A stretch of DNA of 64,000 bases from Patescibacteria group bacterium (lineage in GTDB: Bacteria > Patescibacteriota > Patescibacteriia > UBA9934), in assembly GCA_018062825.1 (NCBI GenBank), contig JAGORL010000002.1:1629-65628 (forward strand), written 5' to 3'. The notes under the pieces were generated by a model that was not told where the DNA came from, did no database searches, and was given only the letters and a program-made list of their open reading frames with translations. Numbering within the stretch: the first letter of the stretch is position 1; every line of letters starts with the position of its first letter. The translations under genes and the position numbers were made by a program. Of the stretch, positions 11,650 through 20,201 are shown piece after piece.

Positions 11650-13038
11650 CTATACCCTATTCCCTTCCTTCACCCTCTGCCCCTCAGCTGTATCCTCAAC
11701 CACAAACCCAAGTTCGGCAATTGCATCACGCAATCTATCTGAAGCTGAAAAATCTTTGTTAGATCGAGCGGCGGCACGTTCATCAAGTAGTGCCTGCACA
11801 CTTGGCGGCACAAGTACCGGTCGCGCGACCACGTCATCAAGCGTCAAACCAAGCACTTCATCAAAAGCCAAAAGAGTAGCGGCTTTAGTCGAACTAACAA
11901 CATTTGCGTCACTAACAAGCTCCCACAAGACCGCCAAAGCCCCTGGCGTATCAAGGTCATCGCTAACGCGTGCCATAAAGCGATCAACGTACCCAGTATC
12001 AGGAGTACTTGGCTTTTCAAGCGTACGAGCAAGATCGATCAAGCGATTTAGTGCTTGATGAGAAGCGCCAAGCGCTTCAAACGTAAAGTTCTGCGGGGTT
12101 CGGTAATGCGCCTGCAAAATAAAGTAACGGAAATCGAACGGGGAAAAACCCTTAGCTTCAAGATCATCAAGAGAGTACGTATTTCCAAGCGATTTACTCA
12201 TCTTGCCGCCATCAACCAGTAAAAACTCATTGTGCATCCAAAGGTTTGCCTCCAAAACTCCACGAGCACCAAGGGTTTGCGCCAACTCATTCTCATGATG
12301 CACCGCAATGTGATCAATGCCACCCGTATGAATATCAAAAGGAACGCCTAAATACTTCTCCCCCATGGCTGAACACTCAATATGCCAACCCGGAAAACCC
12401 TTACCCCATGGCGACTCCCACTCCATATGACGCTTCTCGCCAGCCGGTGAAAACTTCCACAAGGCAAAGTCAGCGGCACTACGCTTACCATCGGTCTCAA
12501 CACGAGCTCCCCCTTCTTTCTCCTCCATCTTCTGCCCAGAAAGCTGGCCGTACTCCGGCAGCTTGGCAACATCAAAATAAATGCCGTCATCCGTGCGGTA
12601 CGTAAAACCATTCTTCTGAAGCTCTTCAACCATGGCAATCTGCTCAGCAATATGATCAGTAGCCTTAGGAATAACGGTTGGCATCAGATTGTTCACTCGA
12701 CGAATATCGGCAAGAAAAAGTTTAGTGTATTCGTCAGCAATATCCCACGCCGTTTTACCCTTCTTCTTGGAAGCAACCTCAAGCTTATCCTCGCCGCTTG
12801 ATGCGTCATCAGTTAAATGACCAACATCCGTAATATTCATGACCGCCGTCACCGCAAAACCATTCTTTTCTAGTGTACGTCGTAAAAGGTCAGCAAAAAT
12901 AAATGATCGCAAATTTCCGATGGAAGCTCGATCGTAAACCGTTGGTCCACAAGAATACATTCCGACCTTGCCCGGTACCTGAGGAGTAAAAATCTCTTTT
13001 TTGCGACCAAGGGTATTGAAAAATGCGATGACATGCAT
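11650..13038 (-). CDS. cysS: cysteine--tRNA ligase
   Basis: YSCGPTVYD, HIGH-like and KMSKS motifs. Start set at the internal Met (MHVIAFFNTLGRKKEIF). The C-terminal GNRV-stop is encoded by the G-rich repeat. Confidence 0.85.
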   Translation of the reverse strand: MHVIAFFNTLGRKKEIFTPQVPGKVGMYSCGPTVYDRASIGNLRSFIFADLLRRTLEKNGFAVTAVMNITDVGHLTDDASSGEDKLEVASKKKGKTAWDIADEYTKLFLADIRRVNNLMPTVIPKATDHIAEQIAMVEELQKNGFTYRTDDGIYFDVAKLPEYGQLSGQKMEEKEGGARVETDGKRSAADFALWKFSPAGEKRHMEWESPWGKGFPGWHIECSAMGEKYLGVPFDIHTGGIDHIAVHHENELAQTLGARGVLEANLWMHNEFLLVDGGKMSKSLGNTYSLDDLEAKGFSPFDFRYFILQAHYRTPQNFTFEALGASHQALNRLIDLARTLEKPSTPDTGYVDRFMARVSDDLDTPGALAVLWELVSDANVVSSTKAATLLAFDEVLGLTLDDVVARPVLVPPSVQALLDERAAARSNKDFSASDRLRDAIAELGFVVEDTAEGQRVKEGNRV

Positions 13039-13088
13039 AGATGTCAGCACAGTAACAGGGGCAACACACTTCATCAAATTCCCTGCCC

Positions 13089-13131
13089 ACAAAAAGAAGA
13101 CCCACCCTCGCCGTTTGGCAAAAGGTGGGTC
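13089..13131 (-). terminator. terminator of GC-rich cassette a1 (GACCCACC ... GGTGGGTC + UUCUUUUUG)
   Basis: Read directly. Confidence 0.6.
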
Positions 13132-13140
13132 GCGCGGTCA

Positions 13141-13704
13141 TCACCACGTGATGCCCACAGAAGCACCCTGGTACTCGGTACCCGTATCCACCCGCCAGCG
13201 AGGGATATCATCCCCCTCAGCGAAGGGCGAGAAGTCGATCCCGCGCTCAGTGCCACCCTGGAGTCCGAAAGCCAGATGCATCGGGAACACGACCACGGTC
13301 GTGACCACACGCTGCTGACCCGCAAACATCACCGGGCGACCAATGAGGTGAAACGGTGAGACACCGAGGTCGCTCGCGGCCACAACGAGCACGCGCGAGA
13401 ACTCCGGAAACGCCGCCGCTACGGCATTAACCGAAACTCCCTGAACGCTGTCCCGCTTCAAGTAGCGCGGCACCTCCACATCCGCCCCCACTGAGCAGTG
13501 AGGACCCTTGAGACGCATGCGACGCTCGACAAACGACCGCCTCACAACGCTCAGAACCGACCACTGCGGCACGAGCACCTGGTTCAAGGGAACGAACAAC
13601 CCATCAGCCTCCTTGCCGAGACCGGCGTAGAGAAAACGACGTCCAAACTCCTGGTGCAGGAGCACGTGCCCGAACAAGAAACCTTCTTGACCATCGTCGC
13701 TCAT
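13141..13704 (-). CDS. hypothetical protein, GC-rich cassette a1
   Basis: Start at MSDDGQEGF preceded by CTTGGAGGTG. The strongly GC-rich segment yields spurious antisense ORFs. Confidence 0.5.
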   Translation of the reverse strand: MSDDGQEGFLFGHVLLHQEFGRRFLYAGLGKEADGLFVPLNQVLVPQWSVLSVVRRSFVERRMRLKGPHCSVGADVEVPRYLKRDSVQGVSVNAVAAAFPEFSRVLVVAASDLGVSPFHLIGRPVMFAGQQRVVTTVVVFPMHLAFGLQGGTERGIDFSPFAEGDDIPRWRVDTGTEYQGASVGITW

Positions 13705-13745
13705 CTCACCTCCAAGGCGACAAGGTAGCGTAACAAAAAACACAA
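13705..13745 (-). promoter_or_regulatory. conserved cassette leader, copy a1 (CGCTACCTTG ... CTTGGAGGTG-ATG)
   Basis: Shared with leaders at 14447-14510, 20870-20898 and 45758-45813. Confidence 0.45.
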
Positions 13746-13792
13746 CAAAAAGCAAACAAAAGACTCGCCGCCCCTTCCGCAGCCGCGGAAGG
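13745..13792 (-). terminator. terminator of cassette a2 (CCTTCCGC-GGCT-GCGGAAGG + U-rich)
   Basis: 8-bp stem followed by a long T-rich run on the minus strand. Confidence 0.55.
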
Positions 13793-13810
13793 TAACGACG
13801 AGCCAGCGCC

Positions 13811-14446
13811 TCACCCGGACACGAACCGATCAACGACATCGGGTCCCTCCACGTGCCTCAGGAAGAGCGGATGAACCTGTTCGTTACGGTCGTACTGGGG
13901 CACCACAACGAACTTGCGAGTACCATCACCGTTTGCGCCCCACAGGTACAAACCGGCCTTGCGCTCCCCGTGATCACGTTCCACCTTGCGGTCGAACACG
14001 ATCGCGAAGCACTTGAGCACGTAGCGAACGCTGTGCGGATCACGCTCGAGGCGCACCAGCCGACCAAGTGACGAGAGCGGAAAGCGCGGCTCGCGCAGTA
14101 CGCCACGCAGAAGGTCGCGTCCCGTCGGCGTTGCCGCATCAAGGAAGCGTCGCCAGATATGCACGTAGGCTTCGTCATCACGCGGCAAAGCCACGATCTC
14201 GAAGCTCTGGAAAGGCTGCTCCACGCCGTTGATGGCAAAGTAGCTGCCACCGGCATCGATGAAACACTCCCGATCCGGATAGCCCGGCAAGGCTGCCGCC
14301 CGAAAGCGATCAATGCCATGCTCGGTACCCACCCGGGTGACAAAGGCCGCCACCACAGAACCACTCTCTTCCCCACGACCGTACACGACGATCGCGCTTG
14401 CTGCCGGGGCCTCACGGCCACGAGAGCTAGGCCGACTTTGACCCAT
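13811..14446 (-). CDS. hypothetical protein, GC-rich cassette a2
   Basis: Start at MGQSRPSS with RBS GGAGGGG. The alternative-frame ORF 13858-14421 has an implausible composition. Confidence 0.5.
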   Translation of the reverse strand: MGQSRPSSRGREAPAASAIVVYGRGEESGSVVAAFVTRVGTEHGIDRFRAAALPGYPDRECFIDAGGSYFAINGVEQPFQSFEIVALPRDDEAYVHIWRRFLDAATPTGRDLLRGVLREPRFPLSSLGRLVRLERDPHSVRYVLKCFAIVFDRKVERDHGERKAGLYLWGANGDGTRKFVVVPQYDRNEQVHPLFLRHVEGPDVVDRFVSG

Positions 14447-14510
14447 GACCCCTCCAGTCCTCGGGATGAATTCCCGCGCCAAGGTTAGATGAAAAATGAC
14501 AAAAACGCAA
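14447..14510 (-). promoter_or_regulatory. conserved cassette leader, copy a2 (TTGCGT-17-TAACCT; CTAACCTTGGC; ACTGGAGGGG-ATG)
   Basis: Aligned by eye with three other copies. Confidence 0.45.
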
Positions 14511-14520
14511 GGTCTTGACC

Positions 14521-15573
14521 CTATCCCTCCTTAAGGCCCAACTCCTCAAGTGCCGTTTTTTGCTGCTTACTCAACTTGGTAGGCGTTACAACCTGTACAA
14601 CCACGATTTGATCACCTCGATTACGACCATGTGGCACACCCTTACCCTTTAAGCGCAATTCGTCACCGGCTTGCGTGCCAGCAGGGATCTTCATCTCAAC
14701 CGGGCCATCTACCGTATCAATACGCACGGTGTCACCAAGAGCAGCCTGAGTAAAACCAATCTTTAACTTGGTAAAGATGGTTACGCCATTACGCGTAAAC
14801 CGTGGGTCCGGCGTCACGTTCACATCAATATATAAGTCACCCGTGTCGCCACGCACACCGATACTGTCGCCTTCACCTCGTACGCGCAAGCGAGTGTCAT
14901 CCTCAATACCAGCCGGAATATCCACCCGTACAGTTTTCTTACCCTGCACCGTACCCTCGCCGTGACACGTTGAACAAAACTTTTCAGGCTTCTCACCACG
15001 TCCTTGGCAATCATCACACGCTGCTCGCACCTGCATAGCCCCAAGCATAGTGCGCTGCACCTTGATCACATAACCGTTACCTTTACAGGTGGTACAAGCC
15101 GCCATCTTGGAACCAGGCTCCGCCGTTGTACCAGCACAACGATCACAAGTATTTGATCGATTGATAACGATCTCTTTGCTCACGCCAAAAATCGCGTCAT
15201 GAAATGAGAGCGTAACGTGAACACCAAGATCAGAGCCTCGTTCACGGCGCGTACGACCACCTCCACCCATGCCGAACATATTGCCAAAAATATCTCCCAA
15301 GTCTTCAAAACCAGCTGCTCCGCCAAATTGCGAAAAATCAAAGCCACCAGGGAATCCCCCGGCGCCTGCATCAGCTGAACCAAATTGGTCGTACCGTTGG
15401 CGCTTTTCAGGGTCACCAAGCGCCTGGTACGCCTCATTGATCTCTTTAAACTTATCGGCGTTACCACCCTTATCAGGGTGGTGTTCATGCGCAAGCTTTC
15501 GAAAAGCACGCTTAATCTCATCAGCTGAAGCCGACTTCGAAACGCCTAAAATGCTGTAATAATCTTTCGCCAC
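14521..15573 (-). CDS. dnaJ: molecular chaperone DnaJ
   Basis: J-domain with HPD; G/F region; four CxxCxGxG zinc-finger repeats. Confidence 0.9.
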
Positions 15574-15578
15574 AGAAT

Positions 15579-15803
15579 TTATTCATCAGCCTCACCGGCA
15601 CCACAATCTTCACAGTCGTCACAACAACGATCAGTATCAGACTCTTCATCGCAACAATCACAACTTTCACCACAGCTCACCTTTCCGCCATTCCCCCCTT
15701 CCGCCATTCCGCCTTTCTTCACAGGCATAGCGCAAACGCCATCATGACAGGTGGCCTTTGGTGCTTCTTTCTTTGCCCCAAACACTGACGAAAGCCATGA
15801 CAT
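15579..15803 (-). CDS. Cys/Asp-rich microprotein (74 aa), hypothetical
   Basis: [74 protein letters not shown]. It lies 5 nt upstream of dnaJ. The middle part is encoded by a GGCGGAAGGG-type repeat. Confidence 0.45.
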
Positions 15804-15806
15804 AGA

Positions 15807-15995
15807 CTATTTCTCATTAATAACCTCACCCGAAACATCAACCACCGAGGTGCCGTTCTTGCTCTTCTGTTTCACCTTTGATGACGTTCTACGCCACAAC
15901 AGAGCAACTAAGGGGACAATAACAAGTGTTATTGCTCCCCAAATAAGTTGCGCATAGTGCCCTGCTTTCTTTAATCGTAAAAGGAGGGACCACAT
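15807..15995 (-). CDS. small single-TM membrane protein (62 aa), hypothetical
   Basis: One hydrophobic helix then a basic tail; tightly packed between its neighbours. Confidence 0.35.
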   Translation of the reverse strand: MWSLLLRLKKAGHYAQLIWGAITLVIVPLVALLWRRTSSKVKQKSKNGTSVVDVSGEVINEK

Positions 15996-16000
15996 AGTAC

Positions 16001-16384
16001 TTAGGCTTGTTTCTTAGCGTCGGCAGCACTCCAAGAACACAAACGCATTGGTTCGCCACCATCAAAACGTGCCCACATGATGTACTCGCCGTTGCCAGCA
16101 ATTGGCACTCCAGGAATACGCATCACAATCTGTGCTCCAGGGCCCTTGATCACGCCCTTATAGAGATTGCCCTTCTCAACAAGCACCTTATCAGCATTTG
16201 TCATGTAAAGCTCAATCTCATGCTCTGGCGACAAACCTTCAAAACGCGTAGCAAAGAATCCGCGCAAAGCCTTGGGAGCACCAACGGCAAAGTTTGTTCG
16301 ATCAAACACATTCACAAACGTGTGCAAACCATTGACCGACAACGTCGCGAGCTCACAGAACAGTGCGTATTCTTTGGTAATCAT
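16001..16384 (-). CDS. hypothetical protein (127 aa) immediately downstream of dnaK
   Basis: ORF with plausible composition in an operon position. Confidence 0.5.
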   Translation of the reverse strand: MITKEYALFCELATLSVNGLHTFVNVFDRTNFAVGAPKALRGFFATRFEGLSPEHEIELYMTNADKVLVEKGNLYKGVIKGPGAQIVMRIPGVPIAGNGEYIMWARFDGGEPMRLCSWSAADAKKQA

Positions 16385-16410: not shown

Positions 16411-18312
16411 TTAGCTCTTCGCATCTGCGTCACCCGCATCCTTGAACTCAGCATCCTTTGGTTCAGCAGCAGCGTCAGGGGTGGCGCCAGGAGGAGGAGT
16501 TTGCTCGCCCTGCGTTGCCTGATACATCTTAGTGCCAATAGCCTGCGCATCCTTAGATAGTTCGTCGACCGCATTCTTCAAAGACTCGAGATCATCACCG
16601 TCCTTCAAGTCCTTGACGCGCTTCATCTTCTCTTCAAGATTCGTCTTTTCAGCGTCTGAAATCTTATCTTTGTGTTCGCTCATCATCTTCTCAACGGTGT
16701 ACACGGTTGTATCAGCAATATTACGAGCCTCAACCGACTCCTGCTTCTTCTTATCTTCCTCAGCATGCGTTTCGGCATCAGCCTTCATCTTCTCAATATC
16801 TTCCTTAGAAAGACCGGAGCTAGAAGTGATGGTGATGTTCTGCGTCTTGTTCGTTGCTTTATCAGTAGCTACAACCTTCAAGATACCGTTCGCATCAATG
16901 TCGAAAGTAACCTCAACCTGTGGAACGCCACGTGGTGCCGGTGGAATACCGGTCAGATCAAACTGACCAAGAAGCTTGTTGTCATTGAACATGGCGCGCT
17001 CTCCTTGGGCAACACGAATGGTAACGGCTGGCTGATTGTCAGTGGCCGTTGAGAATGTCTGTGACTTACTCGTTGGAATAGTGGTGTTACGCTCAATCAC
17101 CTTAGTAAAGACGCCACCCATCGTTTCAATACCAAGAGAAAGTGGGGCAACGTCCAAAAGCAAGATGTCCTTAACGTCGCCTTGCAAAACACCAGCCTGT
17201 ACCGCCGCACCGATTGCTACCACTTCATCCGGGTTCACGGTGACGTTTGGCTTCTTGCCAAAGAAATCTTCAACCTGCTTGAGAACAAGCGGCATGCGGG
17301 TCATACCACCAACCATCACAATCTCACCAATCTCTTGCGCGGTCATCTTGGCGTCACTAAGCGCCTTCTTAACCGGACCAAGTGTCTGAGCAACAAGTGG
17401 TGAAACAAGCTCCTCAAGCTTAGCGCGGGTAAGGGTCATCACTAAGTGCTTTGGACCTTCAGCGCCAGAAGTAATGAATGGCTGATTGATCTCAGTCTGT
17501 TGTGCTGTTGAAAGTTCGATCTTAGCGCGTTCAGCCGCATCCTTAATACGCTGCATAGCAAGCGGGTCGCCAGAGAGATCAACACCCTCCAACTTCTTAA
17601 ACTCCTCCAAGATGTAACGCATGATGGTCAAATCAAAGTCATCACCACCAAGGTGCGTATCACCGTTTGTGGCAAGCACCTCAACCGTACCCTCGGAAAC
17701 ATCAAGAACGGAAACATCAAATGTTCCACCACCCAAATCGTAAACCACAATCTTCTGACCAACCTTCTTATCAAAGCCGTACGCCAAAGCCGCAGCCGTT
17801 GGCTCGTTGATAATACGCATGACCTGCAAGCCAGCAATTTCACCAGCATCCTTAGTTGCTTGGCGCTGGGCGTCGTCAAAGTACGCAGGAACAGTGATAA
17901 CGGCCTGAGTGATCTTTTCACCAAGCTTCTCTTCCGCATCAGCCTTCAGCTTCTGCAACACCATAGCCGCAACTTCCTGTGGCGTGTGCTCTTTATCACC
18001 CATCTTTACCGCCACACCTTCACCGCGAGCAACGATCTCAAACGGCATGAGTTTAATGTCACGCTGTACCTCTTCATCCTGAAAACGGCGACCAATCAAA
18101 CGCTTCACGGAGTAAAGCGTGCTCTTAGGATTAGTAACGGCCTGTCGTTTTGCTGGAACACCAACCACACGCTCCCCCGCCTTGGTTGTGGCAACCATGG
18201 ACGGCGTGGTGCGCATACCTTCCTTATTTTCTAAAACCTTAGGCTGGCCACCTTCAAGAACGGCCATGCAGGAGTTTGTTGTACCAAGATCGATTCCAAG
18301 AATTTTTGCCAT
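16411..18312 (-). CDS. dnaK: molecular chaperone DnaK (Hsp70)
   Basis: [16 protein letters not shown], full-length Hsp70. Confidence 0.95.
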
Positions 18313-18320
18313 ACTTATTT

Positions 18321-18872
18321 TTATACTTTCGCAGGAAACTGATAGATAAATTTTAACAACATCTCAACAAAGTGAATGATTTTTTCAGCCTCGTCCCTAG
18401 TGCGACTTTGGATTTCATGATTAGCGTCATTGCCAAGCTGTCTTATTGCATCGACCCAGTCACGACTACCTGGTGGAGTATAGTGATTCTCTACAAGCCA
18501 ATTCACATATTCCGCGAATTTCAGACCTTTATCTGCACCTTGCGACACAGCGACATTCATTAATACTTTGCGCATACACATAACTGAAGCCGTATAAGCA
18601 CTTACAGAAAAAGACTTTCTTCCTTCCGTGTATATTCCAAGAACATCAGTCGGCAAATCGCTTACATCATTGCCATACGCAACTCCTGGATATTGAACCC
18701 CTTCGCCAGAAAAATAAGTCGGATGATTACAAGCGTGACAAATGTATATACTCGCATGTGGGCTAGATGCATGAGAGCCTACAAAATATCCAACATTTGA
18801 TGCCAAAGGATTATGACAATACCCACAGGTATATGATCGAGACTTAATTATATGAGTCTGTATCCAAGCCAT
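18321..18872 (-). CDS. zinc-ribbon + DUF4145-domain protein
   Basis: N-terminal CGYC ... CHAC ribbon. The C-terminus ([18 protein letters not shown] ... [15 protein letters not shown] ... [17 protein letters not shown]) matches the DUF4145 pattern (IR..GN.AAH ... LL..LY). Confidence 0.7.
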
Positions 18873-18873
18873 A

Positions 18874-19422
18874 TTACTCGCTTACCACAACCTTCGACGG
18901 ACGAATGACTAAGTCACCAAGTTTCCAACCACGCACAATCTCTTCAAGAACAACGCCAGGCTCTTTACCGTCCTCCTTACGAGAACTCGCTGACTCATGA
19001 AGCATCGGATCAAACTTGGCGCCAACGGCCACAATCGGTTCAACGCCAAGGACCTTTAAGGCTTCAGCAAACTGACGATCAATGTGCCCGATCCCTTGAA
19101 ACCACACATCAAACTTTTTCTTAGCGTCGTCTGTGAGTCCACTAACGTCCGGCACATGCTGCAAAACGTAGCCAAAGTTATCAACGACCGGGAGCAATTC
19201 TTCAGCAAGTGAGAGTTGCGCGCGACGACGATCCTCGACCCGACGCTCTGACATCTGCTTTTGAATATTCTCGTAATCAGCAAGCGCACGCTTCCAGCCA
19301 GCTAAGTATTCATCACACTTTGCTTGCAAGTCAGAGGCAGGCGCCGCGGATGCCGTTTCTGGCGCTCCTTCTGGAGTAGGTTGATCATTATTTACTGTCG
19401 TGTCCTTTTGTTCTTCATCCAT
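18874..19422 (-). CDS. grpE: nucleotide exchange factor GrpE
   Basis: Conserved GrpE core ([12 protein letters not shown] ... [18 protein letters not shown]). Confidence 0.9.
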
Positions 19423-20152
19423 AGGTTAGAGCTTGAGGTTCAATAAGACGTTTGGCGTGCATGAGAAGCGCGGCGTTATGCGCATAATCCATACGCATCG
19501 GCCCAACAATGCCCATCACACCTCTACCACCGTCTGGCAACGTATGCCCGATAACAACCGAGGCGAGCGCCGGACCAAACGGACTGTCACTCCCTAAAAT
19601 GATCTGCACATCCTCACGCGTAGTTTTAGCCATGCCGCGCAAGGTGGCATCAAGCTTCTCAAGTGAGTCAGCGAGCGCGAGGCGCGCCTGTACCTCTTGA
19701 AAGTCCGGCTTACGCAAAAGGTTAGCGATGCCGACCGTTTCACTCCACGGCCGAGTAGTAGCAAGCATAACTGCGTCTCCGGAGGCCTGCGCAAGCGCAA
19801 GACCGATTTCATGCATGCGCTCTTCAGAACTTTTCTGCCGAGGCTGAATTCTGAGCGTCACCCGGATCTGCACCGCCGGACGTGCCGGCTTAGTAGCTGT
19901 ACCGGTTGCGGGACCTACATAGGAAGCAATGTAATGCTTGTAGGCCTTCTCAGTTGGCACACGGCCAGCCGAGGTATGTGGCTGCGCAATGTACCCAGCC
20001 TCCTCAAGGGCTGCCATGTCATTACGAACCGTGGCGGGCGAGCAATCAAGATCAGCCCGTTCACAGACCTGTTTGGAACTCACAGGCTCGGCGGTACGCA
20101 CGTACTCGTCCACGATGCACTTGAGAATTCGTTCTCGTCTGGAATCCATCAT
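19415..20152 (-). CDS. hrcA: heat-inducible transcription repressor HrcA
   Basis: N-terminal wHTH ([21 protein letters not shown]) with an HrcA C-terminal domain; operon context. Confidence 0.9.
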
Positions 20153-20161
20153 AAAAGGATA

Positions 20162-20188
20162 TTAGCACTCGGTATTATAGACTGCTAA
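20162..20188. promoter_or_regulatory. CIRCE operator (TTAGCACTC-N9-GACTGCTAA)
   Basis: One mismatch to the consensus inverted repeat; directly upstream of hrcA. Confidence 0.8.
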
Positions 20189-20201
20189 ATCGGAACGTCA
20201 A
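20174..20201 (-). promoter_or_regulatory. sigma70-like promoter of hrcA operon (TTGACG-17-TATAAT), -10 inside CIRCE spacer
   Basis: Read on the minus strand. Confidence 0.6.

Follow-up and report, generated by a model that had tools for sequence, protein, structure and literature searches.

In Thermus, the gene for the small protein DafA lies within the dnaK operon. In Thermus thermophilus, DnaK and DnaJ form a DnaK3-DnaJ3-DafA3 complex with this protein, out of which substrate drives DafA (PMC3727329), and the J-protein CbpA has a small regulator, CbpM (PMC4063869). The folding helper SlyD carries a His/Cys-rich tail that binds Ni(II) and Zn(II) (PMC3292732). Small size, a high cysteine content, few or no aromatic residues and cysteines grouped as CC, CxC and CxxC are the compositional hallmarks of metallothioneins (PMC7387436). 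Here, we analyzed a stretch of 64,000 nucleotides (nt) from a metagenome-assembled genome (MAG) of Patescibacteria, contig JAGORL010000002.1, in the following called the window, in which three small open reading frames (ORFs) encoding proteins of 127, 62 and 74 amino acids (aa) lie between dnaK and dnaJ. The 74-aa product is best read as a new metallothionein-like peptide which is unrelated in sequence to the known ones and resides in an unusual genetic setting.

All coordinates refer to the window, and the operon is read on its minus strand in the order hrcA, grpE, a gene for a DUF4145 protein, dnaK, the three small ORFs and dnaJ. The dnaK gene (16411-18312, minus strand) encodes an Hsp70 of 633 aa. 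It is followed after 26 nt by the 127-aa ORF (16001-16384, minus strand; GenBank MBP9827956.1) for a predicted beta-sandwich protein, after a further 5 nt by the 62-aa ORF (15807-15995, minus strand; MBP9827955.1) for a single-pass membrane microprotein, after 3 nt by the 74-aa ORF (15579-15803, minus strand; MBP9827954.1) for a Cys/Asp/Glu-rich microprotein, and after 5 nt by dnaJ (14521-15573, minus strand), which starts with GTG and specifies 350 aa comprising a J domain, a CXXCXGXG zinc-finger domain and a C-terminal domain. A preliminary description of this DNA had placed ORFs of these three lengths between dnaK and dnaJ with spacers of 3-5 nt, had counted ten cysteines in the 74-aa peptide and had assigned one transmembrane segment to the 62-aa peptide. 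The coordinates and the peptide sequence agree with the first two statements and a clear hydrophobic helix on the Kyte-Doolittle scale with the third. In GenBank all three small ORFs are labelled 'hypothetical protein'. Each of the six operon proteins that were looked up has an exact copy in the public collection, five of them under the accessions MBP9827953-57.

We consider it close to certain, judging from comparison with relatives, that the three small ORFs are real protein-coding genes under purifying selection. A 27.7-kb contig from a close relative (L001) served as the reference for ratios of nonsynonymous to synonymous substitution (dN/dS) calculated according to Nei and Gojobori. On this contig all three ORFs are intact and have the same order and frames as in the window. 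The dN/dS values amounted to 0.033 for the 127-aa gene, 0.064 for the membrane peptide and 0.054 for the Cys-rich peptide, next to 0.022 for dnaK, 0.030 for grpE and 0.032 for hrcA. The ORF for the Cys-rich peptide differs from its counterpart at 3, 9 and 31 sites in codon positions 1, 2 and 3, respectively (Fisher p 1e-13), its product is 79% identical to the orthologue over 68 aligned codons (70% by BLASTP), and the membrane peptide is 89% identical. The same excess at third positions was found in seven pairs of Cys-rich and six pairs of membrane peptides from other sub-lineages, with pN/pS ratios of 0.04-0.34 and Fisher p values from 5e-6 to 6e-21. The preliminary description had named lack of conservation, or disruption in relatives, as the outcome that would speak against these ORFs, and neither was encountered, the frames being intact in L001 and the dN/dS values low. 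No obvious Shine-Dalgarno sequence precedes any of the eight genes of the operon, dnaK included, so that its absence before the small ORFs is uninformative. The six frames of the window contain 216 ORFs of 50-100 aa, showing that chance ORFs of this length are common. Three of these 216 have at least nine Cys codons, and only the 74-aa ORF is acidic and starts with ATG.

Homologues of the 127-aa protein, at 46-60% identity, were found in MAGs labelled Patescibacteria or Candidatus Uhrbacteria, and every one located on an adequately long contig is encoded shortly downstream of dnaK in an hrcA-grpE-dnaK-...-dnaJ operon. For about 16 distinct lineages of Uhrbacteria-like Patescibacteria, we read the DNA that separates the 127-aa gene from dnaJ. 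Two small genes recur there, one for a Cys/His/acidic peptide of 60-74 aa in about 11 of the lineages and one for a single-pass membrane peptide of 49-66 aa in about 13. Gene callers often miss these peptide genes, and several loci have no call for them. The preliminary description had proposed to look for the three ORFs in the dnaK operons of relatives; they were found there, the 127-aa gene just downstream of dnaK in about 16 lineages and, as a rule, both peptide genes after it. Its notion of ORFs 'inserted' in this particular genome has to be given up, the cassette of three genes being common to a whole clade within the Patescibacteria. Judged by gene content across these lineages, the cassette is old and clade-wide and not a recent insertion. 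Cassette and operon were also seen in two MAGs labelled 'uncultured Gammaproteobacteria bacterium' (L014, CAYGEQ010000030.1; L015, CAYHFQ010000002.1). Either a wrong label or mis-binning of the contig is the probable cause.

The usual order is 127-aa gene, Cys-rich peptide, membrane peptide, dnaJ, while the two peptide genes are exchanged in the window and L001 only. In all other lineages possessing both peptides, dnaJ comes after the membrane peptide or after another gene, and the conserved neighbour of the Cys-rich peptide is the 127-aa gene. By this comparison, a local rearrangement confined to the lineage of the window has brought the Cys-rich peptide immediately in front of dnaJ. A connection of the peptide with the zinc finger of DnaJ, drawn from their position in the preliminary description, is not supported, as the adjacency is lineage-specific and the Cys-rich gene usually lies between those for the 127-aa protein and the membrane peptide.

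The ten cysteines of the 74-aa peptide amount to 13.5% of its residues versus 0.64% in the 36 long ORFs of the window. They are arranged in CC, CxC and CxxC groups, and the acidic tail of the peptide contains 17% Cys and is devoid of aromatic residues. The family, about 14 sequences, adjoins the 127-aa gene in every contig that could be read. Profile searches recovered 11 clusters among 5.8 billion proteins and 10 representatives with E values of at most 0.001 among 1.84 billion proteins. The peptides share a conserved N-terminal motif, which reads MSF[IF]DxLKxMF in relatives, and about four CC/CxC pairs at corresponding positions. Five columns of the family alignment are invariant, namely F8 and four cysteines, and a fifth Cys column is nearly so. 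The tails of all 14 members contain 12-19% Cys and no aromatic residues at a net charge of -4 to -12, such that the compositional traits of metallothioneins are present in the window's peptide and throughout its family. While the peptide from the window has one His only, His-rich runs such as GHGHAHGG and KHAHHPHEH occur in several relatives, and several members end in a DCDCGHDH-type motif. The composition, from which the preliminary description had suggested metal binding, is indeed of the kind seen in metal-binding peptides, with the cysteines forming the best-conserved columns and relatives adding His-rich stretches and the DCDCGHDH terminus.

The same description had suspected that part of the 74-aa ORF is derived from a repeat, and Tandem Repeats Finder indeed reports an imperfect 8-nt tandem repeat at 15683-15717 (period 8, 4.4 copies, 81% matches; TTCCGCCA, on the coding strand TGGCGGAA), which encodes the central Gly-rich linker of ten residues. 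Here the sequence of the window exceeds that of L001 by 18 nt, without a change of frame.

No match for the Cys-rich peptide was obtained in Pfam, NCBIfam, PADLOC, PHROGs or the PDB, the latter searched with the family profile. AlphaFold2 predicted a disordered peptide without an autonomous fold (mean predicted local distance difference test score, pLDDT, of 47), as expected for a metallothionein-like peptide in its apo form. The peptide does not match PF00684 and has no significant similarity to the CXXCXGXG domain of DnaJ; its best local alignment with the window's DnaJ spans 14 residues at an E value of 0.016 with composition correction switched off. Origin of the Cys-rich tail from the dnaJ zinc finger was considered and rejected, since neither blastn nor blastp returned anything significant. 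Nor do we claim membrane binding by an amphipathic N-terminal helix: shuffled sequences attained the hydrophobic moment of residues 2-12 (0.14-0.44) in 7-80% of trials (62% with the peptide from the window), which is not significant.

The operon begins with hrcA for the heat-shock repressor (19415-20152, minus strand) and grpE (18874-19422, minus strand), identified by Pfam HrcA and GrpE matches on the L001 orthologues. Just upstream of hrcA lies a CIRCE (controlling inverted repeat of chaperone expression) operator (20162-20188; TTAGCACTC-N9-GACTGCTAA) that has one mismatch to the consensus TTAGCACTC-N9-GAGTGCTAA, where 0.01 matches are expected by chance. The operator and the -10 region of the sigma-70-like, near-consensus operon promoter (20174-20201, minus strand; TTGACG-16-TATAAT, 11 of 12 matches) overlap. 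Both features of an HrcA/CIRCE regulon are thus found, namely hrcA itself and a CIRCE element at the promoter. The strong terminator of the preceding gene (20245-20214) is located just upstream of the promoter. Scanning revealed neither a minus-strand promoter inside the operon nor a minus-strand terminator between dnaK and dnaJ, the only other terminator-like matches on this strand of the operon lying inside hrcA (20069-20054) and inside dnaJ (15364-15345). The small ORFs share the strand of dnaK and dnaJ with gaps of 3-26 nt, and their G+C content (47-49%) equals that of the operon. An Rfam scan of the window found two tRNAs only and no RNA element in the cassette region. With promoter and CIRCE upstream of hrcA and no predicted terminator between dnaK and dnaJ, co-expression of the cassette with dnaK and dnaJ upon heat shock appears likely.

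The 127-aa protein is soluble and predicted by AlphaFold2 to form an all-beta sandwich of ten strands (pLDDT 80). Exactly two cysteines, C10 and C116, are invariant in the 14 aligned sequences. They reside in the first and the last predicted strand and could form a redox or metal site if these strands pair. Each of the 14 family members matches PF22091 (DUF6941) weakly, the best with an E value of 1.1e-5. The protein from the window scores 16.1 bits (E 0.015) over profile positions 1-116 of 125, below the gathering cut-off of 27 bits, and on these scores is a distant relative of DUF6941 and not a member by the Pfam criterion. Apart from this weak match, scans of the three cassette products against Pfam, NCBIfam, PADLOC and PHROGs gave nothing, and no mention of DUF6941 was found in the library of papers that was searched. 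In the PDB, Foldseek returned generic beta-sandwich matches with TM-scores of at most 0.5, among them PDIP38 and the carbohydrate-binding domain of Wzt and, further down at ranks 30 and 33, an ApaA protein and the metallochaperone AccA, respectively. In a library of viral structures, an uncharacterised phage protein matched best (TM-score 0.59). An alpha-crystallin-type chaperone was considered and rejected, no small-heat-shock-protein fold appearing among the top 50 Foldseek matches.

In the 62-aa peptide, a basic N-terminus precedes a hydrophobic helix at residues 15-33 (Kyte-Doolittle mean of 2.28 over 19 residues), after which come a basic stretch and a C-terminal motif, V(V/I)DVxxE(V/I), that is conserved. 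In its family the helix contains a Pro in 10 of 14 aligned sequences and is followed by the basic stretch and, in most copies, VIDVxAEEIK. No match was found in Pfam or NCBIfam, and a PDB search with the family profile remained empty. The Cys-rich and the membrane peptide of one genome start alike, as exemplified by MSLLSSIKAMF and MSLLSSFMKWK in L012 (2555-2916; further pairs at L023 481-865 and, in the window, 15807-15995 versus 15579-15803). Over positions 2-10 of both peptides the mean BLOSUM score is 3.9 versus -5.5 (standard deviation 7) for shuffled sequences, with 7.2 within and 3.5 between genomes. The pair from the window itself has a negative score when aligned without gaps. These scores are no more than suggestive of paralogy of the two peptides. 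Descent from one ancestor, gene conversion or a recognition motif used by both could underlie the resemblance, which might also explain the swapped order in the lineage of the window.

In our preferred interpretation, to which we give an even chance, the cassette is a clade-specific part of the HrcA/CIRCE-controlled hrcA-grpE-dnaK-...-dnaJ operon, and its Cys-rich product is a metallothionein-like metal or thiol buffer. In a first step, the cassette genes would be co-transcribed, translationally coupled and induced along with the chaperones once heat or proteotoxic stress inactivates HrcA. The 74-aa product would be metallothionein-like and disordered without its ligand, and its approximately four conserved Cys pairs, together with His and Asp/Glu in relatives, would chelate soft or borderline metals, Zn(II) most likely and perhaps Cu(I), Ni(II) or Cd(II). 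Under stress, the peptide would then buffer metal from unfolding metalloproteins or scavenge oxidants through its thiols and would in this way safeguard or replenish proteins that depend on zinc, including DnaJ, with the membrane peptide and the beta-sandwich protein as partners. From its composition, we judge it fairly likely that the 74-aa peptide binds metal through thiolates; its specific role as a stress buffer is a tentative proposal, less likely than not.

Several observations weigh against this interpretation. The Cys-rich peptide shows no homology to any characterised metal-binding protein, and the Pfam metallothionein models gave no match up to an E value of 10 with the exception of Metallothio_5, which reached 3.9 in one of nine members. 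The spacing and the His content of the peptide vary greatly between sub-lineages, so that the preferred metal is not deducible. A strict link with the zinc centres of DnaJ is opposed by three points: the peptide's adjacency to dnaJ is not conserved, it does not resemble the CXXCXGXG domain, and it is missing from about five lineages (L003, L009, L015-18, L024) in which the 127-aa gene, the membrane peptide and a zinc-finger DnaJ are all retained, indicating that it is dispensable and not obligatorily tied to DnaJ. On the side of expression, the cassette ORFs share the lack of a Shine-Dalgarno sequence with all genes of the operon, and co-transcription rests on consensus scans in a phylum whose promoters may differ from the consensus.

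The main alternative, which we regard as unlikely, would make the cassette proteins Hsp70 accessory factors, with the Cys-rich peptide acting as a redox or zinc switch or as an assembly factor, comparable to DafA or to the Cys4-Zn site of Hsp33, and the membrane peptide tethering the chaperones. It is favoured by the residence of all located homologues inside the dnaK operon in about 16 lineages, by the tight spacing of 3-5 nt, by the hydrophobic/basic N-terminal motif shared by both peptides and by DafA and CbpM as precedents. However, no likeness in sequence or structure to any co-chaperone was found, the Cys-rich peptide has been lost in several lineages whose operon is otherwise intact, and the operon is also an insertion hot spot, which makes location weak evidence of function. 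A more elaborate form, in which the cassette would be a membrane-tethered, metal- or redox-sensing accessory module of the Hsp70 system, the membrane peptide anchoring the Cys-rich peptide, the beta-sandwich protein or both via the shared N-terminal motif and the Cys pairs, when oxidized or loaded with metal, gating the activity or localization of DnaK and DnaJ, is in our estimate improbable.

Very little speaks for the 74-aa ORF as the precursor of a ribosomally synthesized and post-translationally modified peptide or of an exported Cys-rich peptide, whose leader would correspond to the conserved N-terminus and whose core to the Cys-rich tail. A conserved N-terminus followed by a hypervariable, Cys-rich C-terminus is the layout of many such precursors. 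However, no gene for a radical S-adenosylmethionine enzyme, YcaO protein, lanthipeptide synthetase, protease or transporter occurs among the called neighbours at the loci with gene tables, chaperone genes are what is conserved nearby (hrcA, grpE, dnaK and dnaJ, along with the 127-aa gene and the membrane peptide), the tail of 45-60 residues is strongly acidic, and the contig of one carrier comprises only about 0.9 Mb. We rate equally low the possibility that the Cys-rich ORF acts mainly in cis, sensing the supply of Cys-tRNA and tuning downstream translation. Ten of its 74 codons specify Cys, it ends 5 nt before the start of dnaJ, and cysS follows dnaJ in the window and most relatives. Against this, dN/dS values of 0.05-0.3 and conserved residues other than Cys, in the N-terminal motif and in DCDCGHDH, indicate selection on the amino acid sequence and not on codon content alone; furthermore, what comes after the ORF in most lineages is the membrane peptide and not dnaJ, and no attenuator hairpin or terminator was predicted. 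Finally, that the small ORFs arose by chance within an intergenic spacer, in part out of a simple repeat, and yield no protein, is hardly credible and contradicted by the comparative data: short ORFs are plentiful in the window, the small ORFs lack a Shine-Dalgarno sequence, the 8-nt repeat forms the centre of the 74-aa ORF and AlphaFold2 shows no fold for its product, but the frames are intact with dN/dS far under 1 in 15 pairwise comparisons from several sub-lineages, motifs are kept at 25-35% identity across the clade, the repeat-derived insertion left the frame unbroken and the other operon genes are equally without a Shine-Dalgarno sequence.

Between grpE and dnaK, separated from them by gaps of 1 nt and 8 nt, the operon of the window contains the DUF4145 gene for 183 aa (18321-18872, minus strand). 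Its product matches Pfam DUF4145 (E 1.2e-11), the PADLOC anti-phage model PD-T7-4 (E 1.1e-9) and phrog_1305, annotated as 'DNA binding protein' (E 9.5e-28). The gene has a G+C content of about 42% versus about 49% for the operon and is absent in L001, so it looks like a recently acquired, defence-like gene and, going by these features, a truly recent insertion into the heat-shock operon, located outside the interval considered in the preliminary description. The public form of 183 aa has no listed accession, and MBP9827958.1 is a call of 161 aa in the same cluster, in which the first CxxC belonging to an N-terminal Cys4 motif is lost. As the profile matches begin at residues 9-11, the start giving 183 aa is favoured.

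The dnaK operon of the clade is an insertion hot spot, with different extra genes in different lineages. We found a 341-aa unknown between grpE and dnaK (L003 1568-2593), a DUF559 endonuclease-like gene (L003 4573-4950) and a 336-aa unknown (L005 3940-4950) after dnaK, and a gene of the 23S_rRNA_IVP family (L020 4229-4588) and a protein of about 770 aa with FG-GAP repeats (L012 2951-5269; L023 919-3198) before dnaJ. Further downstream in the window, the 1.4-kb interval between dnaJ and cysS (13141-14482) has a G+C content of 58-62%, versus about 49% around it. Two overlapping minus-strand ORFs of 223 and 232 aa, neither with a match in Pfam or PADLOC, are found there along with many overlapping ORFs on both strands. 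In relatives the interval harbors two unknown genes plus an extracytoplasmic function (ECF) sigma factor and its partner (L002, where the partner shows a weak DUF5667 match, and L022) or the sigma factor pair only (L003), and others differ again. The gene for cysteinyl-tRNA synthetase, cysS (11650-13092, minus strand in the window), is situated shortly downstream of dnaJ also in L002, L003, L005, L007, L020 and L022. The synteny of a Cys-dense ORF and cysS across the clade may be mere conserved gene order.

The genomes of Patescibacteria are minimal, as illustrated by the 0.9-Mb contig, and genes kept clade-wide in a core heat-shock operon therefore likely matter. The Cys-rich and the membrane peptide represent two microprotein families without a Pfam or NCBIfam match, and literature searches combining dnaK operon with cysteine-rich small protein, and Patescibacteria with metallothionein, found no description of these families or of the operon arrangement. 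If the Cys-rich peptide serves as a metal or thiol buffer induced by stress, this would provide a handle on the way in which ultra-small bacteria deal with zinc release and oxidation during proteotoxic stress, and the peptide would be the first metallothionein-like protein known to us to be wired to the HrcA regulon. Should it instead regulate DnaK and DnaJ, it would be the second example, after DafA of Thermus, of a lineage-specific microprotein controlling Hsp70. The accessory module, if true, would constitute a new kind of co-chaperone, joining the logic of DafA and Hsp33 in microproteins within a branch of the Candidate Phyla Radiation.

Compared with the bacterial metallothioneins (SmtA/BmtA, the Pseudomonas metallothioneins and MymT), the Cys-rich family agrees in its small size (60-74 aa), in 12-19% Cys arranged as CC, CxC and CxxC, in the absence of aromatic residues and of a predicted fold without metal, and in the additional His residues of relatives. 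It differs in that the peptide matches neither a Pfam metallothionein model nor a PDB entry, has a strongly acidic tail and a hydrophobic/basic N-terminal motif, and is encoded in a heat-shock operon rather than under a metal-sensing regulator. With the SlyD tail and the similar His/Cys-rich stretches of nickel chaperones it shares disorder, a richness in His, Cys, Asp and Glu and a tie to the folding machinery, relatives carrying runs of the GHGHAHGG...CC...CCGG type; in contrast to the SlyD tail, it is free-standing and not appended to an FKBP domain, the copy in the window has a single His, and no context of hydrogenase or urease maturation was seen. The likeness of the 127-aa protein to DUF6941, a family without known function, consists of the weak profile match and a similar size. 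To our knowledge, DafA is not Cys-rich and has neither a membrane peptide nor a beta-sandwich protein as partner. Compared by description only, DafA is likewise small, and as a partner of DnaK and DnaJ it offers the closest parallel to a microprotein that has become attached to the Hsp70 system in one particular lineage.

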